Shown here: piece by piece, positions 3,116 through 23,272 of the stretch
How positions within the stretch are numbered: the stretch's first letter is position 1
Layout: each line of letters begins with the position of its first letter
Position numbers and translations under genes: made by a program
NCBI GenBank assembly: GCA_043822925.1
Contig: JBDRBF010000009.1
Span: forward strand, 1-25,360
Direction of reading: 5' to 3'
Origin: a bacterium
GTDB lineage: Bacteria > Babelota > Babeliae > Babelales > RVW-14
DNA length: 25,360 bases
The notes under the pieces: generated by a model
Told to the model about the DNA's origin: nothing
Database searches by the model: none
Seen by the model: only the letters and a program-made list of their open reading frames with translations

Positions 3116-3475
3116 ATGAATTTTATACAGGACCATTTTCCGTCGATTTTATTGGGAATACTCGCTGGTGTTTTATATGCCGGTTTTTTGGTTGCCAGTA
3201 TTAAGCAGCGATTATCCCAAAATCCAGGGTCTTTAGGTCAAAAACAAAAATTTGAGAGCCCAGAAATTGAACGGGAAGCACAAGAATTAGCCAAAAACCA
3301 GGCAAAGCGCGCACTGGTTCGTTCAGTTTTGTTTTTTTTACTTCGATATGTTTTCATTTTGTGGTTATTGGTTTTCTTTTTGGTTAAACTGCAAACAAGC
3401 GTGGTTACCTGTATTATTTTCTTTGGTGTAAGTTTTTGGGTTTATATCGTACTTGCACTTAAGGGTAAAATATGA
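3116..3475 (+). CDS. ATP synthase accessory membrane protein (AtpI/AtpR-like)
   Basis: 119 aa with ~3 hydrophobic segments (LLGILAGVLYAGFL...; VLFFLLRYVFILW...); ATGA overlap with atpB; position typical of atpI/atpR. Confidence 0.75.
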   Translation: MNFIQDHFPSILLGILAGVLYAGFLVASIKQRLSQNPGSLGQKQKFESPEIEREAQELAKNQAKRALVRSVLFFLLRYVFILWLLVFFLVKLQTSVVTCIIFFGVSFWVYIVLALKGKI

Positions 3476-4332
3476 ATATCGAAATTTTTAAGTATGAATC
3501 GATTAGGCCATTTAAAATTTTGGGTCTGACGGGTGATTTTTGGACGATTCACATTGATACACTTATTTACACATGGGCAGCCATGGCTGTTTTATTGATC
3601 TTGTCTCTTATTGGCTGGCGGGCGATTAAAAATCGTGATATGAATTATAGTTTAGTTTCTGTTGAATCGGCTATTGGCTTTTTTATTGATTTATGCAAAG
3701 AATCTTTTCCTGTTTTTAACTATAATCATTTTGCTTTTATTCTTTCGCTCTTTTATTTCACGCTTGCATGCTGCTTGATTGGGTTAATCCCAGGGCTTGA
3801 TGAGGCGACAAAAGATTTGAATACAACGCTTGCTATCGGCCTGACGAGTTTTATTTATGTTCAATATGAAATCATAAAAGCTCACGGTGTTTTTGGTTTT
3901 TTAAAAGATCTTGCGCAGCCGTTTTTATTATTAATGCCAGTTAACATTGTTGGAGAGCTTTCGCGTATCGCTTCTATGTCGTTTCGACTTTTTGGTAATA
4001 TTTTAGGTGGTTCGATTATATTTTCTATGATGGTTAATGTATTTGAAAATTTTGCTCTTTATTTTATTTTTTATGTAATAGCCGTGCTAATTTTTTCTTG
4101 GTTTACTGAAAAATATAATTTGTTTTCGCGTTATAAAAAAATACGTGCAGCTATTAAATGGAGCGTAGCGGCAGTTTATTTGTTGCCGTTTGCGCAAATG
4201 TTTTTTGGTATTTTTGAGGGAGTTATACAAGCATTTGTGCTTACCATGCTTACGACCGTGTATCTTTCTATGGGGCTTGGTAGTCATGATAGTACTGAGC
4301 ATGCTGTTAAACATGAACATGAGGAAATCTAA
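3472..4332 (+). CDS. atpB: F-type ATP synthase subunit a
   Basis: PVNIVGELSRIASMSFRLFGNILGG (essential Arg), ATKDLNTTLA, FEGVIQAFVLTMLTTVYL. Confidence 0.96.
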   Translation: MNIEIFKYESIRPFKILGLTGDFWTIHIDTLIYTWAAMAVLLILSLIGWRAIKNRDMNYSLVSVESAIGFFIDLCKESFPVFNYNHFAFILSLFYFTLACCLIGLIPGLDEATKDLNTTLAIGLTSFIYVQYEIIKAHGVFGFLKDLAQPFLLLMPVNIVGELSRIASMSFRLFGNILGGSIIFSMMVNVFENFALYFIFYVIAVLIFSWFTEKYNLFSRYKKIRAAIKWSVAAVYLLPFAQMFFGIFEGVIQAFVLTMLTTVYLSMGLGSHDSTEHAVKHEHEEI

Positions 4333-5285
4333 TGAATTTGCCTGTTTTTCTCCATTATTTTTCTGCTGCTTTGGCTATGATGCTCGGCGTTGTTGGTGGC
4401 GGGCTTGCCCAGGGCATAGCGGGGTTGAGTACGCTTGAAGCCATGGAACGGCAACCTACTGGCGGTGATAGTTTATTTAAGTCGCTTATTATCGGGCTGG
4501 CTTTAATAGAAAGTGGTTTAATTATAGCGCTTGTTATGTCTCTCATGGTTCTTTTTAGCGTGCAAGAGCCTACTATGGCGAGTGCTTTGTGCGAATTGGG
4601 CATGGGGCTTGCTATTGGTACTGCAGCTGCAAGCATTAGTATAGCATCAAGTTTTGTGGTGAGAGCAGCGACATTTGCGATATCCAGGCAACCATTTTTT
4701 GCGCAAAAAATTATTACAATTATGTTACTTACGCAGTCAATTATTGAAGCCCCAGTTATTTTTGCTTTTATTGTTTCTCTTTTAATTAAAATGAATATAT
4801 CACCATCTATGACCGTGTATGAAAGTTTGCGTTATTTTGCAGCTGCTTTAGCGGTTGCTCTTGGTAGCATTGGGCCGTCTATAGGCCAAGGGATTTTTGC
4901 AAACGCGGCGTGTTCGTCAATCGGTCTTAATAAACGTGCATATGAAAAAGTTTTCCCATTTACGCTTGTTACTCAAGCGGTTATCGAAACGCCCATGATA
5001 TTTTCTATGTTGGTTTCGCTTTTAATTATTTATTCGCATATTATTCTTCTGGATTTTTCTCAGGGGATAATACTTATAACAGCTGCTGCTACAATTGGGT
5101 TTGGAGCTTTGGGCTCAGCAGCTGGAATCGGCTTTGCTGCGTCTAAAAGTTGTTATCAAATAGCGAGTGAGCCGGCAAATTATGGGCCTATTTTTAGAGC
5201 TACATTGCTTGTTTTGGCATTTATTGAGTCTATGGTTATTTATGCGTTAATTATTGCGATGCTTTTGATTAAACAAGCGTCTTGA
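4332..5285 (+). CDS. atpE: ATP synthase subunit c with four tandem c hairpins (317 aa, ~8 TM)
   Basis: Four ~80-aa units, each with a small-residue inner helix and the conserved Glu (E60, E139, E219, E299). RQP loops in units 1 and 2. TAATG overlap with atpB. Confidence 0.93.
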   Translation: MNLPVFLHYFSAALAMMLGVVGGGLAQGIAGLSTLEAMERQPTGGDSLFKSLIIGLALIESGLIIALVMSLMVLFSVQEPTMASALCELGMGLAIGTAAASISIASSFVVRAATFAISRQPFFAQKIITIMLLTQSIIEAPVIFAFIVSLLIKMNISPSMTVYESLRYFAAALAVALGSIGPSIGQGIFANAACSSIGLNKRAYEKVFPFTLVTQAVIETPMIFSMLVSLLIIYSHIILLDFSQGIILITAAATIGFGALGSAAGIGFAASKSCYQIASEPANYGPIFRATLLVLAFIESMVIYALIIAMLLIKQAS

Positions 5286-5298
5286 GATATAAAAAAAT

Positions 5299-6522
5299 AT
5301 GTTAAAAAAATATGTTGTTATTGGTTCTTCGGCTGCGAGTATTAGTGTTTTAACTAAACTGCGTGAGCTTGATAGAAAATCACAAATTCTTTGTATTAGT
5401 GCTGATCAAGATTTACCGTATAACCGGTGCTTACTTGCAGATCTTTTGTGTGATACGTACACGCAAGAACAGATTTATCTTAAAAATAATAGTTTTTTTC
5501 AGGATAATAATATAGAACTCATGCTTAATACGCGTGTTACACAAATTATTCCTGAATCTCGTGAACTTATAGTAACAGACAGTAATAATATAATATGCAC
5601 GGTTTCTTACGATACGTTATTTTTAGGCACTGGTAAATCTGCGTATATTCCTGATATTGCAGGGGTACATATTAATGGCGTAATGCCATTTTTTGATCTG
5701 CGTGATGTGCGTGATATTAAAAATTACATGCAACAAAATCTCGTCTCGAATATTACGATTATTGGTGCTGGGCTTACGGGTTTAGAATGCGCCGACGCGC
5801 TTTTAGGTTTTACGCCAAATTCTTCCATTAATATAAATATTATAGAAAAAGCGGCACACGTTTTACCCTCTATTCTTGATGCTCAAGCGGCGCAATATTT
5901 AAATAATAAAAGCGTCACGCTTTTATTAAACACATGCGTGACTGAAATTCTTGAGTGCAATAATAAAGTGTCAGGCGTTAAGCTTTATTCTGGCCAAGAA
6001 TTAGCCACAGATCTTGTAATTTTTGCAACTGGTGGTCGCACAAACATAGAGCTTGCGCGCAGTGCTGGGCTTGAAATTTCTGATAACGAGCTATGTGTAA
6101 ATGAGTATATGCAAACAAGTAGCAAAAATATTTATGCTGCCGGGGACATTTGCCGTATCAAAAATTTAGCAACGGGCGAATATATACAAAGTTTTTTATG
6201 GTCTGACGCTATTATCCAGGGTACTATTGCTGCGCTTAATATGGTGGGAACTGCTCAAAAATATCCTGGCGCATTTATTATTAATATGTCGACGATTTTT
6301 GATATACCAGTTGTATCTTGTGGTTATGTAACCCAGTATTCAGATATCTCTTCTGGTGTTTCAAGCATCACTAAAAAGTGGCCGGATTATTATCACCGTT
6401 ATTTTATAAAAGATAATGCGCTTATTGGTTTTATTATGGTCGGCAAGATTACAAATCTATCTGGACTTAAAAATGCGATCTTATTTAAAACGTTGCCCAA
6501 ATTTAAATTGACCTGGGATTAA
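5299..6522 (+). CDS. FAD-dependent NAD(P)H oxidoreductase (NirB N-terminal/NADH:rubredoxin oxidoreductase-like)
   Basis: VVIGSSAAS (variant FAD loop), PYNRCLL, YDTLFLGTG, IIGAGLTGLE (NADH loop), VNEYMQTS...IYAAGDI. Confidence 0.88.
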   Translation: MLKKYVVIGSSAASISVLTKLRELDRKSQILCISADQDLPYNRCLLADLLCDTYTQEQIYLKNNSFFQDNNIELMLNTRVTQIIPESRELIVTDSNNIICTVSYDTLFLGTGKSAYIPDIAGVHINGVMPFFDLRDVRDIKNYMQQNLVSNITIIGAGLTGLECADALLGFTPNSSININIIEKAAHVLPSILDAQAAQYLNNKSVTLLLNTCVTEILECNNKVSGVKLYSGQELATDLVIFATGGRTNIELARSAGLEISDNELCVNEYMQTSSKNIYAAGDICRIKNLATGEYIQSFLWSDAIIQGTIAALNMVGTAQKYPGAFIINMSTIFDIPVVSCGYVTQYSDISSGVSSITKKWPDYYHRYFIKDNALIGFIMVGKITNLSGLKNAILFKTLPKFKLTWD

Positions 6523-7117: not shown

Positions 7118-7888
7118 CTAGTTTGTGAATGACAATCGTTTTTTATCTTTTTTGGTTAGTTTTAAAAACTTAATAACGAGTTTATGATCTTTAAATTCCA
7201 TTTCATAATCAGTATCGACATCAGCATATTTAGGCAGGTCTATAGATATTTGTACTTGTCCATTTTTATATTGTATCGATTGCTCTTGTCCATTAATTGA
7301 TTTGAAGCTTGAAAATTGTTGGTACGAGAGTACGCGAGTTTCTTTTTCTTTATCTTTTTTTTGTTGCGTTTTTTTTGCTGTAATTACAAGACGTTTATTG
7401 CTTGTTTCTTTTTCTGTTTTATCTTCGATGGTTGTTATGATTTCGTCTTTTATGAAATCTGGTAAGAAGATGTTTATTTCGATTTTCTTGTCTGTTTCTT
7501 GTATATCTATTTTGTATTTTGACGCGACTTGTTCTTTGTTTTTGATATTTTCAAATGTCTTTTTTTGTTCTTGTAATATTGGTGAGAATTTATTTATTTC
7601 GTCTATAACTCGATTTGCTGCTGGAGCTCCATCTTTTTCATGAGTTGTTTTTTGATTATTGAAAATATCTTCGATTTTTTTATTAAAGTTTTCGATCTTT
7701 TTGCGTAAGTTTTCATGTTCTTTTTGCATTGTTTCTTGAATGCTTATTTCTGGTACTTTAAAAAATTGGTCAAATTCGTCGATTTCTTTTTCTATGTTAG
7801 TATTAAATAAAAAAGCGTGAATTTTTGGTGTTAAACATAAGCTTGTGCATAATGTTGCGCCACAGAGTATTGCATGTATTTTCTTCAT
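7118..7888 (-). CDS. Hsp20-like protein with N-terminal signal peptide and coiled-coil region
   Basis: MKKIHAILCGATLCTSLCLTPKIHA (Sec-like); C-terminal domain IDIQETDKKIEINIFLPDF...SIDLPK...FKDHKLVIKF...RLSF; ATGA overlap with the HIT gene. Confidence 0.7.
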   Translation of the reverse strand: MKKIHAILCGATLCTSLCLTPKIHAFLFNTNIEKEIDEFDQFFKVPEISIQETMQKEHENLRKKIENFNKKIEDIFNNQKTTHEKDGAPAANRVIDEINKFSPILQEQKKTFENIKNKEQVASKYKIDIQETDKKIEINIFLPDFIKDEIITTIEDKTEKETSNKRLVITAKKTQQKKDKEKETRVLSYQQFSSFKSINGQEQSIQYKNGQVQISIDLPKYADVDTDYEMEFKDHKLVIKFLKLTKKDKKRLSFTN

Positions 7889-8601: not shown

Positions 8602-10572
8602 TTATAGCGATGCTTGGTTGTTTTTTTGATCTGGTTCACACGGTACTTGCGCTGTTTGTACTGTTTCAGGTGTAATTGCTGGTTGCATGGTCTCGTCCAG
8701 TCCCGCGTCTTTTTTAAATACACGTTCAGCGTGTTCTATTTGGCGTTCACGGCTCCAGGCAGAAACAGGCGTAAAGTATCCAATAACGCGCGTGAGATAG
8801 TCTTTTATTGGGGCGTTACATAGTGGGCAATTTGTAACTTGGCCAGCTATTGTTGTGTGATTATTCTCGCAGCGACAATAATTATAATTTATCGCAAAGT
8901 GTTCGCAGCCGTATTTAATCGCATGTTCGATCAGTTTTTTCATCTGATTTTTGTGCGTTAACTTTTCTCCTAAGTTTAAGTGAGAAATGCCGCCACCAGT
9001 TAAAGCTTTAGAAAAAGCTCCGTCCATTTTGACGCGTTCAACAATGTCGCAATTAATGGTTAGTGGGATAAATTGGTTTGCATAAACTTGGTAATCCATG
9101 TTGTATACGATTTTGTCTTTGGCTGCTAATTTTACGGCCAAGCTTTCTGCGGGAACTTGTTCAATATTAAATAGCGAGTAGCCTTTTTTGCTGCAATCTG
9201 CTGCGTATTTTTTTATACGAGCAAGCAGCTCTATGGCTAATTTTTGACCGGCTTCAGTAGTAATTGGAGAGCCTAGTTGTTCAAGACATTCATAAATGCC
9301 GTTTAATCCAAAAGTACTAAATAGACGGCTCATTGAGATTATGCCTCGGCTCATGAATGGATAGAAATTTACTTTCTTGCGTTTTTCGAGCAACTTTTTG
9401 TGCGCGACAAGTGCGCTTTCTGCTTTGCCCAGTTGTTCATATAAGAGCTCTACTAAGTGTTCATATGATTGTGCGCGTTTGCCCAGGCGAGCCATGTTTA
9501 TTGTCACAACACGGTGAGAACCAAGAGACAAGCCTCCATTACCAAAGCTGTCTATGCCGGCTAAATCAAAGTCATTAGTTAAGCGACAACAGCTGGCTAT
9601 TTTGTTTCCTGAAGAGATATAGATATTAAAGCAGCCTTTATCTAAATTTATTTGTGAAAAATAATCGAGCGATTCTTGGTCTATGACGTGGCCATTGTCG
9701 TCGACACGTAAGTTAAGTGTTACGACGGGAAATCTGTATGGTAAATCTGTGACGGGGTCGCCTTTATGGAACCAGTCGCAAAATATTTTTTGTATTTCTT
9801 GTATCGTGTCATAATCTGGCTTTGAGCCGTCAGGAAAAATATAATCTTGAAAAAGAATTTCTAAATTAGGTCGATCAAAAATTGAAATATTAGTGAATGG
9901 AGACTGGTGTGATGGTCTTAGTTTTTTATTAAGTGTGTGAACGAGTGATTGGAAATCGTCTTCAATGCTTTTGCGTATTGCTGGATTTTGTAAATCGAGA
10001 TTTTCTTTTTTAACGAAGTATGAATAACAGGCGATAAGGTCGCCAATGGCAACAGCGCCGGCTACTTCTTGTGCTACTTCTATGGTTACTTCTTTTACTT
10101 GGTCAATAAAAGAGCGTCTTTTTTTTGGTGGAAGTGATTGTAATTGTCCCCAAAAATTCCCCTGACGAAGTAAGAATTCGACTGACATTGCCCAGCAGTA
10201 TGGTGACTGTATTGATGTGCTATCATGAAAATATAAATCACCATCCCATAGAGAAGTCATGATGCTTTGTGCTTTTTCTTGTCCGTGATCTGTTTTGAGT
10301 ATTTCGTATAAATCGTTATACCCAATAAGTTTTTGGTTGCTTTTGACCATTTCAGAAAGATAATTGCCATATGATTTTTCGTTTTGGGCATGGTTGGCAT
10401 TGTTATCTATGGTTAAATCAATAACGCTTTCTTGAAAGTAACGATGTGATGCGCTTGACATATCAAGTTGAGTTTCTGAGAGACCTTCCAGTTTAAGTAG
10501 CTCTTGGCTTGTTTGTGCATAGAGTTCTTTGAAGTCATCAGAAAACTGTGCGTAATTTTTTATATTCCCCAT
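8602..10572 (-). CDS. nrdD: Class III (anaerobic) ribonucleoside-triphosphate reductase
   Basis: LYFHD, QSPFTN, YRFPVVT, ASCCRL active site, EQVPAESLA, CENNH...CPLC metal site, glycyl-radical motif YLTRVIGY. Confidence 0.95.
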   Translation of the reverse strand: MGNIKNYAQFSDDFKELYAQTSQELLKLEGLSETQLDMSSASHRYFQESVIDLTIDNNANHAQNEKSYGNYLSEMVKSNQKLIGYNDLYEILKTDHGQEKAQSIMTSLWDGDLYFHDSTSIQSPYCWAMSVEFLLRQGNFWGQLQSLPPKKRRSFIDQVKEVTIEVAQEVAGAVAIGDLIACYSYFVKKENLDLQNPAIRKSIEDDFQSLVHTLNKKLRPSHQSPFTNISIFDRPNLEILFQDYIFPDGSKPDYDTIQEIQKIFCDWFHKGDPVTDLPYRFPVVTLNLRVDDNGHVIDQESLDYFSQINLDKGCFNIYISSGNKIASCCRLTNDFDLAGIDSFGNGGLSLGSHRVVTINMARLGKRAQSYEHLVELLYEQLGKAESALVAHKKLLEKRKKVNFYPFMSRGIISMSRLFSTFGLNGIYECLEQLGSPITTEAGQKLAIELLARIKKYAADCSKKGYSLFNIEQVPAESLAVKLAAKDKIVYNMDYQVYANQFIPLTINCDIVERVKMDGAFSKALTGGGISHLNLGEKLTHKNQMKKLIEHAIKYGCEHFAINYNYCRCENNHTTIAGQVTNCPLCNAPIKDYLTRVIGYFTPVSAWSRERQIEHAERVFKKDAGLDETMQPAITPETVQTAQVPCEPDQKNNQASL

Positions 10573-11012
10573 GTTAGCTCCTTTTTTTTAAAAACACGTT
10601 GGTTTGATGATGCAGGCCACCCCTTTTTTTGAAGGTCTTCTCTGTATGGTCCACAAACGACCATAAATAAATGATCGAGCAATTCTTGTGGCAGGTCTTC
10701 AAATTCTCTGCCGGTATAGAGTGCTATAGGCAGTTTTGTGTGTTGTTTTATTTGTGAGCACATCTCAAGCAAGAAGGGCAACTGATCTGTTGGTTCCCCT
10801 CCCAAGAAAGCGACGCAATCAGCCAGTGTATTGTCTTTTACTTTTTGTAAAACTTCGATGTCAGACATGAGAGTCCCGCTGGTAGGGTCCCAGATGTCTT
10901 TATTTTGGCACCCTTTGCACCGTATGCTGCATCCGGAGAAGAAGATAGCAACAGCGATTGCATCGGGTACATCAATGAATGATGTGAAGATACGGGCTAT
11001 TCGTCCCTTCAT
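10560..11012 (-). CDS. nrdG: Anaerobic RNR activating enzyme (radical SAM)
   Basis: GCSIRCKGCQN (CxxxCxxC), FLGGEP, GPY, ASSNQRV; start moved to ATG 11012, which has a GGGAGG SD; overlaps the nrdD start by 13 nt. Confidence 0.93.
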   Translation of the reverse strand: MKGRIARIFTSFIDVPDAIAVAIFFSGCSIRCKGCQNKDIWDPTSGTLMSDIEVLQKVKDNTLADCVAFLGGEPTDQLPFLLEMCSQIKQHTKLPIALYTGREFEDLPQELLDHLFMVVCGPYREDLQKKGWPASSNQRVFKKKELTWGI

Positions 11013-11203
11013 AAGAGTCCTCCCAAATTGGTTAGTATTCTTGTGATTCTTGAGAGGTGATTCTAAACGTTGACATGTATGCTTAGCAAGCTTTCTTTTT
11101 AATTTTTTTTCTAACATTTATATGCGTAAAATAAATGTCTCAATGGGAGGTAATTTATGTCTATTGGTTTTTAAGTTGGCAATAAAAAAAGATATTTTTG
11201 AGT

Positions 11204-13655: not shown

Positions 13656-15203
13656 ATGTTGTTTGTAAAACGTTTATTAACGTTATTTTTGTTTTGTGTT
13701 TTTGTTCTGAGCTCGTCCTTTATTTCAGCAACGTATACAACATTGAGTGAGTGGACGCTTGCTAATCAGCAGGGCAAGTTTTCTGGTCAAAATTCTGTTT
13801 TGACAGCAAATGAATTTTTAGACGTGCTTGAAAATTGTCGCAGAGCTATAAGAGAGCGAGTATTTGATAAACCTGATCTTTGGCTCAAGAATAATACCCC
13901 AACAAATAGCTTTTTTCAGGCTGATTTAAATAATGAATGTTATCTGCAGAAGCTGGTTGTTGATCCAGGATCTAAAATTTGTTTTATGGGTGATATTCAT
14001 GGAAGCGTCGATTCGTTATTACATAATTTAAATAAATTGGCATCAAATAATTATATCGCCGATAATTTTAAAATTATAAACGATAACTTTTATATGATTT
14101 TTCTTGGTGATTATATTGACCGAGGTGTTTGTGGCGTTGAGGTTTTGTCTATTCTTAGTTTATTAAAAATAGCTAATCCGGATACGGTCTTTTTACTTCG
14201 TGGGAATCATGAAGAACCTTGGCAAGTGGGTACTTTTGAGAAAGAGCTTGAGGCTAAATTTAAATGGCAGGATCAGGATGTTCAAAAAGCTGTTCTTGAA
14301 ACAGCTAAATGCTTTCCTGCTGCGATATTTCTTAAGTCCGGTACAAATTTTGCGCAATGTTGTCATGGTGGGATTGAACTATGGTATTCGCCATGTGATT
14401 TTATGGCATCAGATAAAATGTTTGAACGGTATATAAAACATAAAGAGATTTTTCGTGAAAAAGAGTGTCTGTTTGAGTTCGGTTTTATATGGTCTGATTT
14501 TGATTTTCTTGGTAAAGAAGATCGTGAATATCAAAAGTCTTATGAATTTAGTGTTCGTGGTGGGAACGCGCTTATTTTTCATAGAGAAAAAACTAAAAAA
14601 TATTTAGCGAAAAATAGTACGCCAGAGAACAGGTTTGTGGCTTTTTTTAGAGGGCATCAGCACGCTTTTTTTGGTCTAAAAATGTTTAATGAGCATCATA
14701 AAAATATAGGAAGTTTGGGTTTTCGAGCTCATTGGGAGAATATTGTTTCGGAAGAAGATGTACGCAATAAAGAAATTTCTATTGCTGCGTATCATCCAGT
14801 GTTTACTTTTTCAACTGCAGCGGGTGTTTCATCATGCTATCAGCCGTACGATTGTTATGGGATTTTGACGGTAGAAAAAGAGTATGAAAACTGGACATTA
14901 AAAGTGCATGAAGAAATGCGTACTAAAATTAGAAAATCAGATTTAAAGTTTGAAAAAAAAACTGTAAAACCAGGTATTAAAAAAGTTGATACGCTTTATG
15001 ATTTTGAGTTTAACCAAGATCTTGAAGAAGAAGGCGAAGAAGCAATAACTCTTGAAGAAGCAATAAAAAATGTAGGAGAATCGCCTGATAATTGTATGTT
15101 TGAAGATGTGCAATTGGAAGATGTGCAATTGGTGGATGTTTCTTTTGAACCTTTTAATGTCAATAAACAAGAAAGAGATATTTCTTGTTGTCATATTTTG
15201 TAA
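13656..15203 (+). CDS. Secreted PPP-family Ser/Thr phosphatase paralog 1, C-terminal CaaX box
   Basis: Signal peptide; GDIHG, GDYIDRG, LRGNHE, HGG, WSD, RG, RGHQ, VFTFSTA; acidic tail ending SCCHIL*. Confidence 0.9.
   Translation: MLFVKRLLTLFLFCVFVLSSSFISATYTTLSEWTLANQQGKFSGQNSVLTANEFLDVLENCRRAIRERVFDKPDLWLKNNTPTNSFFQADLNNECYLQKLVVDPGSKICFMGDIHGSVDSLLHNLNKLASNNYIADNFKIINDNFYMIFLGDYIDRGVCGVEVLSILSLLKIANPDTVFLLRGNHEEPWQVGTFEKELEAKFKWQDQDVQKAVLETAKCFPAAIFLKSGTNFAQCCHGGIELWYSPCDFMASDKMFERYIKHKEIFREKECLFEFGFIWSDFDFLGKEDREYQKSYEFSVRGGNALIFHREKTKKYLAKNSTPENRFVAFFRGHQHAFFGLKMFNEHHKNIGSLGFRAHWENIVSEEDVRNKEISIAAYHPVFTFSTAAGVSSCYQPYDCYGILTVEKEYENWTLKVHEEMRTKIRKSDLKFEKKTVKPGIKKVDTLYDFEFNQDLEEEGEEAITLEEAIKNVGESPDNCMFEDVQLEDVQLVDVSFEPFNVNKQERDISCCHIL
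15102..15131 (+). repeat. 15-bp tandem duplication (EDVQL x2) in the paralog 1 tail
   Basis: GAAGATGTGCAATTG twice in tandem. Confidence 0.9.
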
Positions 15204-15242: not shown

Positions 15243-17042
15243 ATGTTAATTGTTCGCTTAGAATCTAAAATTTTTCAAATTTTTTCTGTGCTTGTATTTT
15301 GTTTAAGTTTGTCTGTTGTTCAGGCTATGCAGCAGGATGGAGTACAACAATTTATAGAACCTAAAATGCCAACGTTAACCGAGTGGACAAGTCGGTGCTT
15401 TGCCGAGCTGCCTGAGTATACAGAAGAATATAAAACGGTTTTGACTAGTCTTGATTTTTTGTATGTTATTAAAAAATGTAGAAATATGTATCAAGAGACT
15501 GCTTTTGGTAATAAAGAAAACTGGCGTGATGGTGCAGCTCCAGATAACGGTTTTTTTGAAGATGTAGCGTCAGAAGAGAGTTTTTTTTCTGTTTGGGACT
15601 GTGCGCAAAAGTATAAAGCGCCGGTAGGGAGCACCCCTGTTTTTATTGGTGATATTCATGGCTGCGTGCATGCTTTGTTAAGAGATTTGTGGGGGCTTGT
15701 TGCCGATAAAAAGCTCGACAATAATTTTAAGTTAGCGCCTGGTGTTACGATTGTCTGTTTGGGTGATTATATTGACCGTGGTAAATATAGTGCCGAAGTT
15801 TTGTATACACTTTGTTTGTTAAAAATGGCAAATTTTGATCAGGTGTTTTTGTTACGTGGTAATCATGAAACTTTCGGCTATTTTGATGGCCCCTCTGGAT
15901 TTGGAGATGAGTTAAAAAATAAGTTTAAACTAGAAGAAGATCAATTGAATTTTGTTTTTAATTTTATACTAAAACTTGTGCGTTGTTTCCCTCTGGTATT
16001 GTTTTTTGAATCGGGGGATAGCGTTATTCAGTGTTCTCATGGTGGAATATGTTCGGGTTATGACCCTGTAGATTTGCTGCATGCGCCGGATACAAAAATA
16101 TTTGAACGAATCAAGCCGGTAGGGGCTAGTGCCAATTCTGAACAATTTTCAGCTGAGATGAAAAAAAATAAAAATTGGGCAGGACATTTTTTTGGGGTAG
16201 ATTTTACCGGAAAAGATTATAAGGATGGCGTTGTTCTTGGTTCTCGTGGTTTAGTCTACGGTAGGAATGGCGTTAACGAATATCGAGAGAGAATCAATAA
16301 ATCTTTAAAAGAGGCAGGGCTTAAGCTCAGGCTTGAAGGATTTTTTCGTGGGCATGAGCATGCTTGTTTTGGTTTAAAGATGCTTGAGACGAAAAATGGA
16401 GAGCGGGGGGCAGGAGCTCTTCAAGCTAATTTGTGGCAAATGCATTGGAAACAAATTGTTTCTCTTGAAGAAATAGTAAATACTGAAATTCTTATTCATA
16501 AATATTATCCTGTGTTTACTTTTTCTACCGCTTCTGGAACGCCTCTATGTGGGCAACCATATGATTGTTATGGCGTTTTGACGACAGCCCAAAAGTGGGA
16601 AGATTGGAAACTTAAAGTGTATGAAGGCAAAACCCCGCTTAATGAAAATTTCAAAGTTGAAAGAGAAAAGATAGATGGGAAAGTTATTGAAAAATCTATT
16701 TTTAAAAATGAAAAATATGTAGAAATTGATACGAAAGACGGCTTTGTTTTTAGTAACCAGTGTTCTGGAATGGCAATTGATGTGCGTTGGGTTGATAAAA
16801 AAGATAAGCGTACGCCAATTGGTGATGCGCTTATTAAGTTTGTTCAAGAGCTAAAGTACCCATCAGAAGTTATTGAAAAAGAAGAGAAGCATCAAGACAA
16901 AATAGAAATTGTTCTTGAATTAGATGAATCAGGCAATAAAAATAGTAGGTCAAAGAGAAAACGAGAAGAGACTAAAGAAAAAGAAGATGGTCGGGAATGT
17001 GACTCAGGTCAATCTTTCTCTAAGCGAGCCAAAAAAGAGTAA
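15243..17042 (+). CDS. Secreted PPP-family phosphatase paralog 2, basic NLS-like C-terminus
   Basis: Signal peptide ending VQA; GDIHG, GDYIDRG, RGNHE, HGG, RGHE, VFTFSTASG; tail SKRKR...SKRAKKE*. Confidence 0.9.
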   Translation: MLIVRLESKIFQIFSVLVFCLSLSVVQAMQQDGVQQFIEPKMPTLTEWTSRCFAELPEYTEEYKTVLTSLDFLYVIKKCRNMYQETAFGNKENWRDGAAPDNGFFEDVASEESFFSVWDCAQKYKAPVGSTPVFIGDIHGCVHALLRDLWGLVADKKLDNNFKLAPGVTIVCLGDYIDRGKYSAEVLYTLCLLKMANFDQVFLLRGNHETFGYFDGPSGFGDELKNKFKLEEDQLNFVFNFILKLVRCFPLVLFFESGDSVIQCSHGGICSGYDPVDLLHAPDTKIFERIKPVGASANSEQFSAEMKKNKNWAGHFFGVDFTGKDYKDGVVLGSRGLVYGRNGVNEYRERINKSLKEAGLKLRLEGFFRGHEHACFGLKMLETKNGERGAGALQANLWQMHWKQIVSLEEIVNTEILIHKYYPVFTFSTASGTPLCGQPYDCYGVLTTAQKWEDWKLKVYEGKTPLNENFKVEREKIDGKVIEKSIFKNEKYVEIDTKDGFVFSNQCSGMAIDVRWVDKKDKRTPIGDALIKFVQELKYPSEVIEKEEKHQDKIEIVLELDESGNKNSRSKRKREETKEKEDGRECDSGQSFSKRAKKE

Positions 17043-17176: not shown

Positions 17177-17230
17177 GATTTTTTTGAGTTGGAATTCGAT
17201 GTGTTTTGTTGTAGAGAGGGAGTGTGTGAG

Positions 17231-20200
17231 ATGTTGCGAGTAAAGTTGATGGAGAATGTGGTTAAAATTTTTTTAGTGCAAGCGTTTGTTTTTTGTGTGG
17301 GAAATTTGTGGGCGATGCAGGGCTTGGATGTTGTGGTTACTGGCACGAAGTTATCTGAGTTTAAAATCCCAACGACGCTTATCAAATGGACAAATAAGTG
17401 CTTTAGGGAGCTTCCTGATAATTCAACCGCTTATAAAAAATTTTTAGAAGCAAAAGAACTTTTTGATGTACTTGAAGCGTGTCGAGATAAATATAAAAAC
17501 AGTGATTTTAAAAATCCAGAGAAGTGGCTTGACGGGAAAGCACCAACTAATGAGTTTTTTCCTGAGGTAAAGTTTGAATCTTCGGGGGCACCACCAAGGA
17601 TTGTGCAATCATGGGATTGTGTACAAAAGCTTGAGGTTCCAGCTGGGAGCCAGAATTGTTTTGTTGGGGATATTCATGGGAGCTTGCATGCTCTTTTGCG
17701 AATTTTGTGGGGACTTGTTGCCGACGGCATACTTGATGACAATTTTAGAATAGTTAAGCCTAATTTTTATATTGTTTTTTTGGGAGACTACGTTGACCGC
17801 GGTAAGTATGGCGCTGAAGTTTTGTATACGCTTTGTTTGCTAAAATTGGCTAACTGGGACCAGGTATTTTTATTGCGCGGCAATCATGAGTATGAGGGGC
17901 TTTGGCCTCGGTATGGTTTTGATGATGAGTTGGAATATAAATTTGATTCATATTACGGTAAAATTTCTTTATGTATAACAAATTTAGAGCGCTGTTTGCC
18001 ATTGGCTTTGCTTCTTAAGTCAGGAAAAGATGAGAGCGCTGTGCAATGTTGCCATGGCGGCATAAAGCCTGATTATGTTCCAAAGCGTTTACTTAACGAC
18101 AAAACGAAAACATTTGAAAAAGTGAGTGGTCATGATTCTGAAAATATAAACTCAATGGGAGAACTTTCTTGGGCCGGAAATTTTAATTGGACAGATTTTT
18201 TTCAGACAGATTATGGTAAAGATGGTTTTTCTTATTTAGGTGGGCGTGGAAATCAATATTATGCTAATGGTGTTAAAAAATATTTAGAAGAAAATGGTCA
18301 AGGAATTAAGGCTTTTTTTCGTGGGCATCAGCATTACAAATATGGCTTAAAGCTTCCAGACGATGATAGCCACTGGGTTGAAGTTATTAAAGATAAAGCC
18401 AGTAAAAAAGACAACCTACTTAAAATAGAAGAAATTACGAAGAAAGTTCCGCCGGTTTTCACGTTTTCTACTGCTTCAGGAGCGTCTGATTGCAAACAAC
18501 CATATGATTGTTACGGGATTTTGACGACAGCTGACGGATGGGCGGGATGGACGTTAAAGGTTTATGAGGGCCTGACGCCTAAAGAGAAAGAGAATAAGTT
18601 TGTCAAGATTGATTTAAAGGGGGCTGGAATATTTACTGGTGGGGTACAAGATACGTTATTGGCTGCTCCTGATAAAGAAGAACCTACAAGTATAAAAATT
18701 GCTGCGTGTTGGAGCGATAAACCCGATCAGGAGCCTGTTGGAAAAACTCTTTTAGAGAAGGCAAAACTTGTGGTTCAACCGGTCCAACAACTGGTGAACC
18801 CTGTGTTGCAGCAACCAGAACCAGTAAAGCTCGTGGTTCAACCGGTCCAACAAATAGGAGTTGCTCCGCCAAAAGATATAAAAGATTTTGAGGGAACAGA
18901 TGTTGAAGACAACACTCCTCTGCATAAAGTTGCTCAGATCGGGCGTTTAGACGTTGTTACGTATCTAGTAGAGAATAAAGATGACATTAAAGCAAAAGAT
19001 AAATTTGGTTTGACTCCTCTGCATAAAGCTGCTCAGAACGGGCATTTAGGCGTTGTTGAGTATTTAGTAGAGAATAAAGATGACATTAAAGCAATAACTA
19101 CGGTGAATTATACCCCTTTGCATTTAGCTGCTCAGAACGGGCATTTAGGCGTTGTTGAGTATTTAGTAGGTAAAGGCGCTGGCATTAATGCAATAACTAC
19201 GATGAAAAATACCCCTTTGCATTTAGCTGCTCAGAACGGGCATTTAGGCGTTGTTAAGTTTTTAATCGAAAAAGACGCTGACATTAAGGCGAAAAATAAT
19301 AGTGGAAATACCCCTTTGCATAAGGCTGTTGCGAAAATAACAGATACAGGTAAAGATAAAGGACCTGCTAGCTTAGATGTTGTTAAGTATTTAGTAGAGA
19401 AGAAGGCTAATATTAATGCAAAAAATGTACAGGGTGTGATTCCTTTGCATTATGCGGCTGGATATGGAACTTTAGAAGTTGTTGAGTATTTAGCAGGTAA
19501 AAGCGTTGAAATTGATGCAAAAGATGGAAAAGGTTTTACTCCTTTGCATTATGCGGCTACTACGGGAACTTTAGATGTTGTTAAGTATTTAGTAGAGAAG
19601 AAGGCTAATATTAATGCAAAAAATAGAGAGGATTCTACTCCTTTGCATTGTGCGGCTAAAAAGGGCTTTTTAGAGATTGTTGAGTTTTTAGTAAAGAAAG
19701 GCGCTGACATTACAGTAAAAGATAAAATGGGTTCTACTCCTTTGTCTTGTGCGGCTGATTTGAACGTTCCTATAGAAGAAAAAGAGAAGATTCTTTCGGC
19801 TTTGATGAAAAATTGTAACGACTTAAGTCTTCTATTTAAGGCTGTTTTTTACGGTGAGTTGAAAGCTGTTAAGTTTTTTGTGAATGAAAAAAAGATGGAC
19901 GTTAATGAAAAAAATCAGGGCAAATATACCCCTTTGCATTTAGCTGCTGAGAACGGGTATTTAGATATTGTTAAGTTTTTAATCGAAAAAGGCGCTAGCA
20001 TTAATGAGAAAGATAATAGTGGAAATACCCCTTTGCATAAGGCTGTTGCGAGAATAACAGATACAGGTAAAGATAAAGGACCTGCTAGCTTAGATGTTGT
20101 TAAGTATTTAGTAGATAAAGGCGCTGACATTAATGCGAAAGATAATAGTGGAGATACACCTTTGCATTTAGCTGCTAAGAACGGGGATTTAGATGTTGTT

Positions 20201-21118
20201 AAGTTTTTAATCGAAAAATCTGCTACGATTGAGGCGGAGAATAATAAAAAAAGAACGCCTTTATTTCTTGCTGTTAAAGCCAATAAATCGGAAATTGTTA
20301 ATTTTTTGACAGAAAACGGTGCTAACGTTTATGCACCAGATGAGGATGGTCTGACCCCTTTTCTTGTGGCTTTAAATCAGAACAAATTGCCCACGATTAA
20401 GCTTTTAGTAAACAAAAATAATATTAATAAGGATATAAAAGACGGATATACCCCTTTGCATGTTGCTGCTTTTCAAGGGATAGATGTTGTTAAGTATTTA
20501 GTAGGAAATGGCGCTGGCATTAATGCAAAAGATAACATAGATCGTACTCCTTTGCATTGTGCGGCTGGATATGGAACTTTAGATGTTGTTAAGTATTTAG
20601 TAGAAAAGAGCGCTGACATCGATGCAAAGACTAAAGAGGATAAGACTCCTTTGGATTATGCGAAGGATGAAAATAATAATGAAAATCTTAACTATTTGGT
20701 TGAAGAGAAAAAGCGTAGAGATTTACAGGCTAGGAGCGTTTCACTAGCGAAGTTTAAAGAAGAGTTGGAGAAGCAAGAGAAAGAGGAATTGGAGAAATTA
20801 AAAAAGCGCAAGGCGAGCATTGGAGATAAAATCGAAAGAGATCAAATCGAAATTGGGAAGCAGCCAATGTCTAGAATAGGCGTGGCTGATGTTGAAAAAG
20901 TGGGCATTGAAGAGCCAATAACGATAAGAAAGCCGCTTGAGCAAGATACGCAGAAAGAGGTAGTGATAGCTAGAGTACCCTTTTATAACGTAGCTTTTGC
21001 TGATCCGGTAGTTGAAAACGTTAAGAAGTTACAGGCTGCATTGGAAGGGCTTAAGGCTAAGTTGGTTAACCTGAGTAAGAGTTTGGCCTTGGTGCGTGCG
21101 AAGTTAGGTGGGAAGTGA
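17231..21118 (+). CDS. Secreted PPP-family phosphatase paralog 3 fused to ~18 ankyrin repeats and a C-terminal coiled coil
   Basis: ATG 17231 with GAGGGAG SD; signal peptide ending LWA; GDIHG, GDYVDRG, RGNHE, HGG, WTD, RGHQ; TPLH-AA-G-L-VV-YL repeats; terminal leucine heptads. Confidence 0.92.
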   Translation: MLRVKLMENVVKIFLVQAFVFCVGNLWAMQGLDVVVTGTKLSEFKIPTTLIKWTNKCFRELPDNSTAYKKFLEAKELFDVLEACRDKYKNSDFKNPEKWLDGKAPTNEFFPEVKFESSGAPPRIVQSWDCVQKLEVPAGSQNCFVGDIHGSLHALLRILWGLVADGILDDNFRIVKPNFYIVFLGDYVDRGKYGAEVLYTLCLLKLANWDQVFLLRGNHEYEGLWPRYGFDDELEYKFDSYYGKISLCITNLERCLPLALLLKSGKDESAVQCCHGGIKPDYVPKRLLNDKTKTFEKVSGHDSENINSMGELSWAGNFNWTDFFQTDYGKDGFSYLGGRGNQYYANGVKKYLEENGQGIKAFFRGHQHYKYGLKLPDDDSHWVEVIKDKASKKDNLLKIEEITKKVPPVFTFSTASGASDCKQPYDCYGILTTADGWAGWTLKVYEGLTPKEKENKFVKIDLKGAGIFTGGVQDTLLAAPDKEEPTSIKIAACWSDKPDQEPVGKTLLEKAKLVVQPVQQLVNPVLQQPEPVKLVVQPVQQIGVAPPKDIKDFEGTDVEDNTPLHKVAQIGRLDVVTYLVENKDDIKAKDKFGLTPLHKAAQNGHLGVVEYLVENKDDIKAITTVNYTPLHLAAQNGHLGVVEYLVGKGAGINAITTMKNTPLHLAAQNGHLGVVKFLIEKDADIKAKNNSGNTPLHKAVAKITDTGKDKGPASLDVVKYLVEKKANINAKNVQGVIPLHYAAGYGTLEVVEYLAGKSVEIDAKDGKGFTPLHYAATTGTLDVVKYLVEKKANINAKNREDSTPLHCAAKKGFLEIVEFLVKKGADITVKDKMGSTPLSCAADLNVPIEEKEKILSALMKNCNDLSLLFKAVFYGELKAVKFFVNEKKMDVNEKNQGKYTPLHLAAENGYLDIVKFLIEKGASINEKDNSGNTPLHKAVARITDTGKDKGPASLDVVKYLVDKGADINAKDNSGDTPLHLAAKNGDLDVVKFLIEKSATIEAENNKKRTPLFLAVKANKSEIVNFLTENGANVYAPDEDGLTPFLVALNQNKLPTIKLLVNKNNINKDIKDGYTPLHVAAFQGIDVVKYLVGNGAGINAKDNIDRTPLHCAAGYGTLDVVKYLVEKSADIDAKTKEDKTPLDYAKDENNNENLNYLVEEKKRRDLQARSVSLAKFKEELEKQEKEELEKLKKRKASIGDKIERDQIEIGKQPMSRIGVADVEKVGIEEPITIRKPLEQDTQKEVVIARVPFYNVAFADPVVENVKKLQAALEGLKAKLVNLSKSLALVRAKLGGK
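18911..20706 (+). repeat. Ankyrin repeat array (~18 units, mostly 33 aa/99 bp)
   Basis: Recurrent TPLHxAAxxGxLxVVxYLVxxxAxINAK units with near-identical DNA between several of them. Confidence 0.95.
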
Positions 21119-21314: not shown

Positions 21315-22994
21315 ATGGAGCTTCAGATTTATAGTTCTCGAAATATGTGCTGGATAAAATTACGCATGTTGTTTGTTCTTGTGTTTTTAGGTTGCGTATT
21401 ATTTTCTCAAAGTAATTTGTTTGCCGAATATAGTTTGAACGAAGAGAGTATCTCTGTGAAGGGCTATCCCTCCAAAGATGAAAAGAGGGTTTTTAAAATA
21501 TATGAAGATGCACTTATGGCAGCATATGAAGACGCTCTTAAAAAGAGCGAATCTGGTGGTGAAGTTCCCAAAAAAGTTAAAGCTATAAAAAAAGATTGGT
21601 TCTTTTTTCACAAGTTGGATGAAAAAGAGAATGATTTGTCAGAGGATTATTGGCTTAAAGGTAACGAAAAGTCGCAATTTCTTAAAGATTTTCTTGTGAC
21701 AGCTTGGTCTGGGTTAACTATTGGTGAGAGTGGGCCTGCTCTTTTTGCAAACATAAATAAGGGGTACTATCCTCATATGATTGGGTTTAATGCTGATCAT
21801 GGATCATTTGAAACAGGTTGTGGCAAGATATGGACAGATGCTGAAAAAGTGAATCCTTTTTATGCAAAAGCATTATCTACCTTTATTAAAGAACTTGAGG
21901 TGAACTTGATAAAAGAATACAGTTTGCTTACGTCAGAAGAGTTAGAAAAAATGCATCAAGAGGCATTGAGAGGTGTGGCATGCAAATATAAGATTCATCT
22001 TCAGGTAGATCCGGAATATCTTATTTCTTTTGTTGAAGACTTATGTGTATTTTTTGTGCAAGATCCACAAGCTTATTTGATTCCTTTTTTTAAAGTATCG
22101 TCAGATCCTTTTTTGCCGAGCAGAACTAGGACTGAAGATCCGGTTCCAATGATTGTTTTATATGTTTGTTCTATTCCTGGCGATGCGGCAGAAAAACATA
22201 AAATTTTAAATCCACTTGTGCATGCAATTGTTGAGCGGTATAAAAATGTTGCGCAAGAGATTTCTCTCAAGAGAAGCGATGGGTCTTGTGTTCGGCCACG
22301 GTTTAATAGTAGGGTTTTTGAGGGGAATGATCTTGTGTGGATTGCTGGTGGAAATGCTGATGACAAAATAATATATAGGGCCCTTTTAAAGCCAAAAGAC
22401 GAAAACATTTTGCTTAGCCGTCTTGAATTTGTTTATGGAGAACTTAGTGTGCGTGGGCTTATTTCGCCAGGACTTGATGATGATATAAAAAATAGAGGGA
22501 TATCTCGTTGGAATGAATTAAAGAGCTTCCAAGAAGTTTTTGATAAAACACATTCTGATAATGATAAAAAAGTTCTTAAAGAAGCGTTTAAAATAAAAAC
22601 GGGTATCGATTTTGATCAGGTAGAAAGATTTAAAAAAATTCATGTGTTACTCAAAGAATTAACGGGTAAAATAAGCGATGATGAGAAGACTAAAATTAAA
22701 GAGCGGCTTGAAGCCGAATTGGGGAATAGTTTAGAAGAAGAATATAAAAAAATATACTTGCCAGAAAATACGGTTTATACGGATGATTATTCTTTTTTTA
22801 AGGGCTATGAATTTAAGTATGATCCTAAAGAAGAAGAGGGTAAATCTATTAATTTTGTAGCTGCTAAAAAAGAAGACGTGCTTGTTGTTAAAAATAATCA
22901 GGCTCCTGTTTCTCGTGAGTTTGGCGTGCTTGGCAGATTGCAAAGCACGTGCAAAAGAGTTTGGGTTGCGTGTGCAAAGTATTTTGTAAAATAA
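21315..22994 (+). CDS. Secreted protein with a putative phosphothreonine-lyase/HopA1-like domain
   Basis: GAGGAG SD; signal peptide ending LFA; YKIHLQV...FFKVS...R...MIVLYV...PRFN pattern. The ORF is solid, but the function is inferred from motif spacing only. Confidence 0.6.
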   Translation: MELQIYSSRNMCWIKLRMLFVLVFLGCVLFSQSNLFAEYSLNEESISVKGYPSKDEKRVFKIYEDALMAAYEDALKKSESGGEVPKKVKAIKKDWFFFHKLDEKENDLSEDYWLKGNEKSQFLKDFLVTAWSGLTIGESGPALFANINKGYYPHMIGFNADHGSFETGCGKIWTDAEKVNPFYAKALSTFIKELEVNLIKEYSLLTSEELEKMHQEALRGVACKYKIHLQVDPEYLISFVEDLCVFFVQDPQAYLIPFFKVSSDPFLPSRTRTEDPVPMIVLYVCSIPGDAAEKHKILNPLVHAIVERYKNVAQEISLKRSDGSCVRPRFNSRVFEGNDLVWIAGGNADDKIIYRALLKPKDENILLSRLEFVYGELSVRGLISPGLDDDIKNRGISRWNELKSFQEVFDKTHSDNDKKVLKEAFKIKTGIDFDQVERFKKIHVLLKELTGKISDDEKTKIKERLEAELGNSLEEEYKKIYLPENTVYTDDYSFFKGYEFKYDPKEEEGKSINFVAAKKEDVLVVKNNQAPVSREFGVLGRLQSTCKRVWVACAKYFVK

Positions 22995-23110: not shown

Positions 23111-23214
23111 ATAGAGCCCTTAATTTTACTGGTAAAACGGTGAGATTAAGGGCTTTATAATTTTATGTTATATTATTGCGTTTTTTTGTGTTGGGTCGAT
23201 ATCGTACTTAATAA
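23111..23214 (+). repeat. Intergenic module copy 3: same hairpin, degenerate TA tract
   Basis: Hairpin at 23116-23153 identical to copies 1-2; U-tract shortened and TA tract replaced by ATAATTTTATGTTATA; the TTATTGCG...ATATCGTACTTAATAA tail is kept. Confidence 0.9.
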
Positions 23215-23272
23215 GATGCTTATTGGGTACTCTAAATATATTAAGTGTTTTTTACGATATCGAGGGTGTGTG

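Follow-up and report, generated by a model that had tools for sequence, protein, structure and literature searches.

An F-type ATP synthase subunit c of four covalently linked hairpins as a putative rotor proteolipid in Dependentiae

How is the rotor ring of an F-type ATP synthase built when the gene for its subunit c encodes four hairpins in one polypeptide? The question is raised by a stretch of 25,360 nucleotides (contig JBDRBF010000009.1 of assembly GCA_043822925.1, positions 1 to 25,360 of the forward strand; the whole stretch is referred to here as the window) from a bacterium of the lineage Babelota, Babeliae, Babelales, RVW-14. An AtpE-like subunit c with four hairpins and eight helices, which we call c4, is encoded at positions 4332..5285 of the + strand; it has 317 residues and a calculated mass of 33.2 kDa. 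How many hairpins and ion sites a c-ring contains determines the ion/ATP ratio, the central thermodynamic parameter of rotary ATPases. The covalent multiplication of hairpins in nature is textbook knowledge for V/A-type enzymes. F-type rings are described as consisting "predominantly" of single hairpins, with duplications being much more widespread in A-type enzymes (excerpt of 10.64898/2026.10.01.756066). The answer that we favor, with a probability of about 0.72, is that c4 is the sole type of rotor proteolipid of its enzyme and forms a homo-oligomeric Fo ring, which would probably be H+-coupled and work mainly as an ATP-driven pump.

The open reading frame (ORF) of c4 starts with ATG and continues for 317 codons with zero internal stops. 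The Pfam family ATP-synt_C (PF00137) matches the protein in four separate stretches, with an E-value of 2e-39 and a score of 134.1 bits compared to a cut-off of 24. Glutamates at residues 60, 139, 219, and 299, which are encoded by positions 4509-4511, 4746-4748, 4986-4988, and 5226-5228 and spaced 79, 80, and 80 residues from each other, fall into one common column of the hairpin profile. When aligned in register, the hairpins of c4 share 14–22 of 73 residues with each other, which corresponds to 19–30% identity, and the only DNA repeats within the gene are those of one weak 27-nucleotide family with 70% identity. This combination excludes a recent tandem duplication or a collapse of the assembly. 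An earlier note on this DNA had described an intact 317-residue frame with Glu at these four positions and four non-identical, strongly diverged units that all keep the carboxylate, and had proposed counting the matches to the ATP-synt_C hidden Markov model; the count gave the four stretches, and the description holds in each of its parts.

Judging by the homologues retrieved, the four-hairpin fusion is not peculiar to one genome but common to the relatives of the window protein in the parasitic phylum Dependentiae. An index search with c4 scored 8000 candidates, of which 201 reached E<=1e-3. Besides the query, 119 homologues were listed; they are 281–329 residues long and 48–75% identical to c4, and the names given to them are without exception Dependentiae, Babeliales, TM6, or plain "bacterium". 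An exhaustive HMMER search of 1.84 billion representatives of 50%-identity clusters yielded 544 matches at E<=1e-3, of which 137 reached E<=1e-30. The survey of multi-hairpin AtpE across the phylum that had been suggested in the earlier note thus found four hairpins in all 119 listed close relatives and in 127 of the 150 representatives listed, these being all 127 of those with lengths of 300–332 residues. The remaining representatives are five longer proteins and 18 shorter ones, which have two or three domains, apart from the longest two with four, and are probably fragments. All six c ORFs tested in related loci contain four ATP-synt_C stretches. Database labels such as "ATP synthase F0 subunit C" or "hypothetical protein" conceal the four-hairpin architecture.

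The c4 gene is present in 14 genome records, which are named Candidatus Babeliales (five), Candidatus Dependentiae (one), "bacterium" or "uncultured bacterium" (four), and "uncultured Pseudomonadota" (four). The records with the last label are L001, L006, L011, and L014. In L001 and L011 an F-type a gene lies directly upstream of c4, and the ORF sizes in L006 and L014 match the same layout. Because the synteny is identical, the label Pseudomonadota is probably a binning or labeling error.

In a tree of hairpins from 21 family members and six single-hairpin c subunits, each hairpin position forms one clade, with Shimodaira–Hasegawa-like approximate likelihood ratio test (SH-aLRT) supports of 94, 99, 99, and 92. 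The fourfold multiplication must therefore have preceded the radiation of the sampled proteins, and the fusion is, on the evidence of this tree and of the 19–30% identity among the hairpins, old. The same data bear on the alternative that c4 is an artefact, in which four adjacent c genes were joined by a sequencing or assembly error or a tandem array was collapsed. Nothing was found in favor of this alternative, whose probability is next to nil. The frame lacks internal stops, the diverged hairpins lack a long DNA repeat, and the same architecture recurs without exception in the 119 homologues listed and also in 14 genome records that are independent of each other. Conserved hairpin signatures, positional clades, and the 14 independent assemblies exclude an artefact of sequencing or assembly, and this reading is refuted.

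The profile scores of c4 are those of an F-type subunit c. Through the summed scores of several hairpins, the protein passes three NCBIfam models of F0F1 subunit C (NF009998, 117.5 compared to a cut-off of 116; NF005363, 78.6 compared to 71; TIGR01260, 51.9 compared to 43.95). The models of V-type subunit K fail, with the best of them, NF011483, reaching 47.1 bits compared to a cut-off of 188. The models of N-ATPases fail as well, both for subunit c (TIGR03322, 88.6 compared to 130.85) and for subunit a (TIGR03306, 83.6 compared to 302.1), and the N-ATPase operon layout atpDCQRBEFAG is not present in the window, which has no β or ε gene upstream and no b, α, or γ gene downstream. The gene preceding c4 is atpB (3472..4332, + strand), which encodes an F-type Fo a subunit of 286 residues that matches Pfam ATP-synt_A with an E-value of 1.6e-32 over positions 2-217 of the 217-position profile. 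Its translation contains the motif SFRLFGN, the Arg of which we take to be the essential stator Arg, as in the a subunit of E. coli. The F0F1 subunit C models, the failure of the V-type K models, and the F-type a gene upstream together support the earlier proposal that c4 is of the F-type and not of the V/A-type. Because it belongs to the F-type profiles but lacks the single-hairpin feature of approximately 70–90 residues, c4 is classified from its sequence as a variant of F-type subunit c.

Canonical bacterial AtpE (PF00137; c-rings 2wie, 1yce, and 4cbj) shares the R-Q-P loop with two of the four hairpins of c4, hairpins 1 and 2, and the class of the best NCBIfam match with c4 as a whole, and the c4 gene stands behind an F-type a gene carrying the Arg motif. 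By contrast, canonical AtpE has about 70–90 residues and one hairpin, whereas the 317 residues of c4 form four non-equivalent hairpins with signatures of their own, of which hairpins 3 and 4 carry other loop motifs. The sole natural multi-hairpin F-type c found in the literature is c1 of Acetobacterium woodii (4bem_J). Like c4, it is a multi-hairpin c of an F-type enzyme; however, c1 consists of two hairpins with a single ion site between them, and a single copy combines with nine single-hairpin c2/3 subunits (excerpts of PMC8904574 and PMC9171764), whereas c4 has four hairpins, four carboxylates, and no single-hairpin gene in its operon. The proteolipids of V/A-type enzymes (c/K of yeast and E. 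hirae; archaeal c with 2, 3, or 13 hairpins) resemble c4 in their covalently multiplied hairpins. In these enzymes the stator subunit is of the V/A type, and carboxylates have often been lost from the multiplied hairpins (excerpt of PMC9171764), whereas the partner of c4 is an F-type a subunit of the ATP-synt_A family and no carboxylate has been lost in the clade of the window protein. Engineered fusions of F-type c consist of identical hairpins and were made in the laboratory, whereas the hairpins of c4 are natural, ancient, and diverged. Such fusions reportedly include c2 and c3 of E. coli and c2 to c10 of Bacillus PS3, in which hairpins linked from C- to N-terminus form a working ring, and they show that the linked-hairpin topology is compatible with rotation.

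No description of a fused c subunit in Dependentiae or TM6 was found in the full-text literature, the scope of which excluded subscription journals and supplementary tables. Excerpts of PMC4776705, PMC6561590, PMC4378268, PMC10066038, and the preprint 10.64898/2026.10.01.756066 contain no mention of a fused c in Dependentiae. The four-hairpin F-type c of Dependentiae is apparently undescribed, although an earlier mention is possible.

The structure of c4 was predicted by AlphaFold2 from a 146-row alignment, with a mean predicted local distance difference test (pLDDT) score of 97.8 and a predicted template modeling (pTM) score of 0.94. The model has eight long helices formed by residues 3-40, 42-74, 82-119, 121-154 (with a kink at residue 139), 162-199, 201-233, 242-279, and 281-316, and three non-helical linkers of 7–8 residues (75-81, 155-161, and 234-241). 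A Foldseek comparison with the Protein Data Bank (PDB) returned half-length matches only, in which the template modeling (TM) score normalized by the query is at most 0.43 and none of the chains extends over more than roughly half of the model. The first-ranked match is A. woodii c1 (4bem_J), followed by V-type proteolipids from yeast, mammals, and Enterococcus with TM scores by target of 0.8–0.86. The halves of the model superimpose onto double-hairpin c subunits (4bem_J; V-type c of yeast and E. hirae) with TM scores by target of 0.71–0.86, and onto the V-type proteolipids with scores of 0.8–0.86 and a root-mean-square deviation of approximately 2.2 Å. The best PDB match by sequence is 4bem_J again (E 1.8e-12, residues 167-313), followed by single-hairpin F-type c chains. 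There is no solved four-hairpin chain among the PDB matches by sequence or by Foldseek.

The four hairpins differ in the residues around their ion sites and in their loops. Hairpin 1 (4332..4562, + strand; residues 1-77) has Q27, E60-S-G, and the loop E-R-Q-P. Hairpin 2 (4575..4799, + strand; residues 82-156) has S106, E139-A-P, and the loop S-R-Q-P. The R-Q-P motif is absent from hairpin 3 (4815..5039, + strand; residues 162-236), which has Q186, E219-T-P, and the loop G-L-N-K, and from hairpin 4 (5055..5282, + strand; residues 242-317), which has I266, E299-S-M-x-x-Y, and the loop S-E-P. In the close homologues each hairpin position has its own conserved signature. Glu is retained in hairpins 1, 2, 3, and 4 of 119, 114, 110, and 117 of the 119 close homologues, and each of the four sites is, as far as these alignments reflect it, under purifying selection in the close family.

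A wider sample of 146 sequences with lengths of 305–332 residues consists of the query, 55 sequences from the index search, and 90 from the exhaustive search of cluster representatives. Position 60 in hairpin 1 is Glu in 142 of these sequences and Asp in four, and position 219 in hairpin 3 is Glu in 139. Position 139 in hairpin 2 is Glu in 78 sequences and Gln in 62; position 299 in hairpin 4 is Glu in 89 and Asp in 54, and position 304 is Tyr, as in c4, in 135. The most common combinations of the four sites are EEEE (71 sequences) and EQED (45), followed by EQEE (11), EEED (4), EMED (3), DQED (2), EQGE (2), and eight singletons. The 71 of 146 sequences that retain all four carboxylates include the window protein. 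The Gln of hairpin 2 is clustered on the tree, with two changes sufficient to explain 66 Gln rows in a tree of 159 rows. On this tree, the window protein is in a clade that retains four sites, and its sister clade dropped the carboxylate of hairpin 2. Having three ion sites per four hairpins, the sister clade may have undergone a gear change within an F-type enzyme. Four genomic loci belong to the sister clade with Gln in hairpin 2 (EQEE or EQED): L009:9989-10951, L010:10010-10972, L011:9989-10948, and L013:9980-10963. In these loci helix 1 of hairpin 1 has Glu and not Gln, and L013 is labeled Candidatus Babeliales.

The loops of the hairpins provide an indication of how the ring may engage the central stalk. 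The R-Q-P loop of E. coli c docks the foot of F1 formed by γ and ε. In the sample of 146 sequences, the loop of hairpin 1 has R40 in 99, Q41 in 141, and P42 in 111, and that of hairpin 2 has R119 in 142, Q120 in 135, and P121 in all 146; N200 in the loop of hairpin 3 is conserved in 128 sequences and P281 in the loop of hairpin 4 in 109. Because the R-Q-P docking loop has been kept by hairpins 1 and 2 alone, stalk contacts would be concentrated on these two hairpins.

Whether an F1 head is present at all has to be considered, because Pfam and NCBIfam searches found no genes for b, δ, α, γ, β, or ε in the 25-kb window, and none was found among 32 neighboring ORFs within approximately ±4.5 kb of c4 in six related loci. 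The Fo genes for a and c are thus split from the other atp genes. The a subunit and c4 could in principle work as a headless pair, for instance in a self-contained membrane module that conducts ions or serves another purpose, and the absence of F1 and stalk genes from the window and the six loci is what such a pair would lead one to expect. However, split atp operons are common, and the R-Q-P motif of hairpin 2 is near-invariant, which points to continued docking of the central stalk. Furthermore, ATP synthase is among the core orthologues of the seven TM6 genomes that have been compared (excerpt of PMC4776705). We consider a headless pair highly improbable. Since F1 genes are lacking in the window and loci, the link of c4 to an F1 head rests on the literature about the phylum and not on this genome.

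The reading in which c4 is the sole proteolipid of the ring depends on whether another c subunit is available. A search of 255,822 nucleotides (the window and 14 loci with ±10 kb, in six frames and at the maximum sensitivity of HMMER) found no second c hairpin, and the only c genes were the 15 fused ones. In A. woodii the single-hairpin c genes share an operon with c1. Like c1, which is accompanied by c2/3, c4 could be a minor component of a hybrid ring beside a single-hairpin c encoded elsewhere, in which case the size of the ring would not be bound to multiples of four. That the solved chain closest to c4, both by sequence and by fold, is A. woodii c1 speaks for such a ring, as does the split of the atp genes, which places the other atp genes outside the window. 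By contrast, only the fused c is present in the 255,822 nucleotides, where the example of A. woodii would have the single-hairpin genes in the same operon, and c4 has kept four carboxylates, unlike c1. A search for shorter relatives, which was an insensitive index search with little taxonomy and provides weak evidence, gave 11 matches and no evident single-hairpin paralogue. The best two, of 140 and 119 residues with 68% and 59% identity, look like pieces of fused genes, and the other nine are partial matches, 43–53% identical over 11–25% of the query, with the two named ones coming from other phyla. A hybrid ring is therefore unlikely.

If c4 alone forms the ring, the rotor proteolipid of this F-type Fo would be a single chain in which four diverged c hairpins are covalently joined, with the linkers of 7–8 residues on the periplasmic side. 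Two, three, or four copies could close into a c-ring rotating against the a subunit, whose gene lies immediately upstream. Such a ring would have 8, 12, or 16 hairpins, provided that all hairpins take part in it and c4 is its only type of c subunit. The restriction to multiples of four is sound logic on the condition that c4 is the only c gene. Known c-rings range in size from 8 to 17. The solved F-type rings among the listed matches have 9 to 15 chains (for example 12 in 3zo6, 13 in 4cbj, and 14 in 3v3c), and because of these ranges three copies with 12 hairpins are the best guess. As each hairpin offers one mid-membrane Glu, the ion/ATP ratio would be the same as in a ring of equally many unlinked hairpins, and 12 hairpins would give four ions per ATP. 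The c12 ring, the four ions per ATP, and a symmetry match with F1 are speculation. A prediction of the three-copy complex returned a score of 0.00 with controls not run, and it has no bearing on oligomerization or ring size.

The ions that drive or are driven by the rotor would probably be protons. According to a published rule, an Na+ site combines the helix-2 Glu with a Glu or Gln in helix 1 and the motif [STQ][STQ]xxY after the Glu position (excerpt of 10.64898/2026.10.01.756066, section 2.3), and in double hairpins it is the preceding hairpin that provides this motif (same source). The sites of E139 (with S106), E219 (with Q186), and E299 (with I266) are preceded by hairpins with E-S-G-L-I-I, E-A-P-V-I-F, and E-T-P-M-I-F, respectively, and are not of the Na+ type by the rule. 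The site of E60 (with Q27) would be preceded in the ring by hairpin 4 of the neighboring copy, which has E-S-M-V-I-Y, and is one Na+ ligand short. Proton coupling is favored because the pattern of Na+ ligands is absent from three of the four sites and incomplete at the fourth.

It is conceivable, but unlikely, that the same fused rotor is coupled to Na+. Q27 and E60 together with E-S-M-x-x-Y from the neighboring hairpin 4 form an Na+ motif minus one ligand, the residue at position 301 is Ser or Thr in 66 of the 119 close relatives, and the parasites carry Na+ antiporters (excerpts of PMC4378268 and PMC6561590). However, the window protein has Met at position 301, and next to its other three sites stand E-S-G-x-x-I, E-A-P-x-x-F, and E-T-P-x-x-F, which contain neither Tyr nor a second Ser or Thr. 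Moreover, every site must pass one channel of the a subunit. Sodium coupling is possible in the relatives and, because of M301, less likely in the window protein.

The direction in which the rotor probably works is suggested by what has been reported on the phylum. The TM6 genomes studied have no tricarboxylic acid cycle and no electron transport chain, and they encode ATP synthase, a proton-pumping pyrophosphatase, and ATP/ADP translocases (excerpt of PMC4776705). It has been proposed that the ATP synthase of TM6 bacteria hydrolyses ATP to sustain the gradient (excerpt of PMC4776705), and the same has been put forward for Chromulinavorax (excerpt of PMC6561590). Published genome work describes Dependentiae as importing ATP from their hosts and having no respiratory chain; on this basis, the main role of the enzyme is most likely that of an ATP-driven pump, which would keep the membrane energized.

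The retention of every carboxylate in the clade of the window protein argues that its fusion is not a gear reduction like that of V-type enzymes. The fusion may instead be beneficial in fixing the order of the hairpins and quantizing the ring size in fours. Fewer chains would have to be translated and assembled per ring, and the lower a:c translation ratio that this implies fits the arrangement of the two genes, in which the TAA stop of atpB and the ATG of c4 share one base (TAATG). This overlap and a GAGGA sequence nine nucleotides upstream of the ATG suggest that atpB and c4 are translationally coupled. In addition, the linked hairpins would be free to specialize, as exemplified by R-Q-P being present on hairpins 1 and 2 only. 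A bolder version of the model is doubtful: it combines a homotrimer of the fused protein alone, forming a 12-hairpin ring with a three-fold match to F1 and a defined register of stalk docking through the diverged loops, with an obligate ATP-driven pump and a fusion that enables the tuning of the ion/ATP ratio. If it were true, the four of four sites in the clade of the window protein and the three of four in the sister clade would represent an early stage of a development in bacterial F-type enzymes that parallels the "gear change" from F- to V-type.

Several points weigh against c4 being the sole proteolipid of a proton-coupled F-type rotor. The a subunit of the window is divergent by sequence, with every NCBIfam a-subunit model below its cut-off, and c4 exceeds the cut-offs of the c models only by virtue of the summed scores of several hairpins. 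To the missing b, δ, and F1 genes is added that a separate single-hairpin c gene may lie outside the window and the 14 loci. Hairpins 3 and 4, without R-Q-P, may deviate from the behavior of a canonical c hairpin. The family consensus E-S-[S/T]-x-I-Y of hairpin 4 and the Gln or Glu of hairpin 1 would make up one complete Na+-type site. The ring size is a guess that the results presented here do not constrain, and the rotor itself is known from a gene sequence and a predicted structure.

If c4 forms the rotor as proposed, a widespread lineage has carried out a natural experiment with an F-type c of four linked, non-equivalent, and fully charged hairpins. The size of the ring would be quantized in fours, the hairpins could be distinguished from each other in a structure, and the family variants from which a site has been removed would allow gearing to be compared. 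Cultured isolates of Dependentiae have been published (Babela, Chromulinavorax, and strain Noda2021), which opens the ring stoichiometry, the stalk register, and the behavior as pump or synthase to direct testing.

Multi-hairpin c subunits are not restricted to Dependentiae. Proteins named "ATP synthase F0 subunit C" with four, five, or six hairpins (P0180 and P0299-P0417) form a separate large family with 2410 matches at E<=1e-3 among 7999 candidates scored, the named members of which are Deltaproteobacteria, Desulfobacterales, Desulfobacteraceae, or Thermodesulfobacteriota. With this family, the statement in the earlier note that a single hairpin is the norm for bacterial F-type c has more exceptions in the databases than the literature searched would lead one to expect. 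The Desulfobacterales-labeled proteins resemble c4 in having several F-type-like hairpins and are approximately 30% identical to the window protein. However, they keep Glu in the first hairpin alone (EQQQQ in 66, EQQQQQ in 26, and EQQQ in 21 among 120 listed), whereas c4 keeps four. Their hairpins form one clade apart from those of Dependentiae, with an SH-aLRT support of 97 over 73 columns, which tentatively suggests that the two fusions arose independently. A common origin of the two fusions is rejected on this hairpin tree of 73 columns, likewise tentatively. The nearest large clusters in the ESM Atlas are ATP-synt_C proteins of approximately 314–323 residues, most common in Thermodesulfobacteriota, with structural matches of TM scores up to 0.46; they are a lead only.

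The searches also returned longer c proteins. P0243, with 968 residues and belonging to a 12-member cluster, has 13 hairpins, most of them with Glu in both helices. P0252 (1139 residues) and P0292 (1147 residues) have 15 hairpins each and are named Promethearchaeota and Candidatus Hodarchaeota. By sequence, these three are c proteins of the size of a whole ring. P0242, with 434 residues and located on a 22.5-kb contig, has five hairpins with Glu in all five (E-S-[TP]-A-I-Y).

Upstream of atpB, and overlapping its start by four nucleotides, is a small hydrophobic ORF of 119 residues (3116..3475, + strand), which has no Pfam match at E<=0.01 and no NCBIfam assignment. Most related loci have an ORF of approximately 90–108 residues at this position. 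The alignment of 11 such small ORFs from the window and related loci gave four weak matches to ATP-synt_I (best E 3.1e-4) and one to AtpR (2.1e-4); the ORFs of L006 and L007 among the 11 align poorly and may be wrong ORFs. The 119-residue product is probably, on weak evidence, an AtpI-like assembly or accessory protein of Fo. The order of small ORF, a, and c4 is shared by the loci examined, and all four upstream ORFs tested belong to ATP-synt_A.

Thirteen nucleotides downstream of c4, positions 5299-6522 encode a rubredoxin-reductase-like FAD oxidoreductase (Pyr_redox_2 and Rubredoxin_C). It is not part of the a/c unit because the downstream gene differs in six related loci, where it encodes a GT4 glycosyltransferase (four loci), a GT28-like protein (one), or a HAD hydrolase (one). 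Between positions 2800 and 6700 there are 14 promoter-like sites compared to 13.4 expected, which is uninformative about the transcription unit, and seven terminator-like sites compared to 3.7 expected, none of them directly after c4.

The window has a GC content of 36.6%. PPDK is encoded upstream, as in the related locus L003. Together with the ankyrin-repeat protein and the anaerobic ribonucleotide reductase genes described below, these features make a Babeliales-like member of the Dependentiae the most likely source of the DNA. Four ORFs encoding 127–559 residues remain without an assigned family: 2374-2877 (− strand) and 7118-7888 (− strand) have no convincing Pfam or NCBIfam match, with a weak match of the latter to ZorA2 (E 2.3e-4), and 21315-22994 and 23165-23548 (both + strand) have no convincing match in NCBIfam, the only collection applied to them. 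On the − strand, 8602-10572 encodes NrdD, an anaerobic ribonucleotide reductase, and 10560-11117 encodes the corresponding activase, NrdG, in a member of a phylum described as oxygen-tolerant and host-dependent. Four ORFs on the + strand (13656-15203, 15243-17042, 17189-21118, and 23658-24803) match weakly the phosphatase part of bacterial Pnkp and PrpE models and look like a paralogous family of metallophosphatase-like proteins. One of the four, with 1309 residues, contains many ankyrin repeats, through which it matches models of Legionella Ank effectors.

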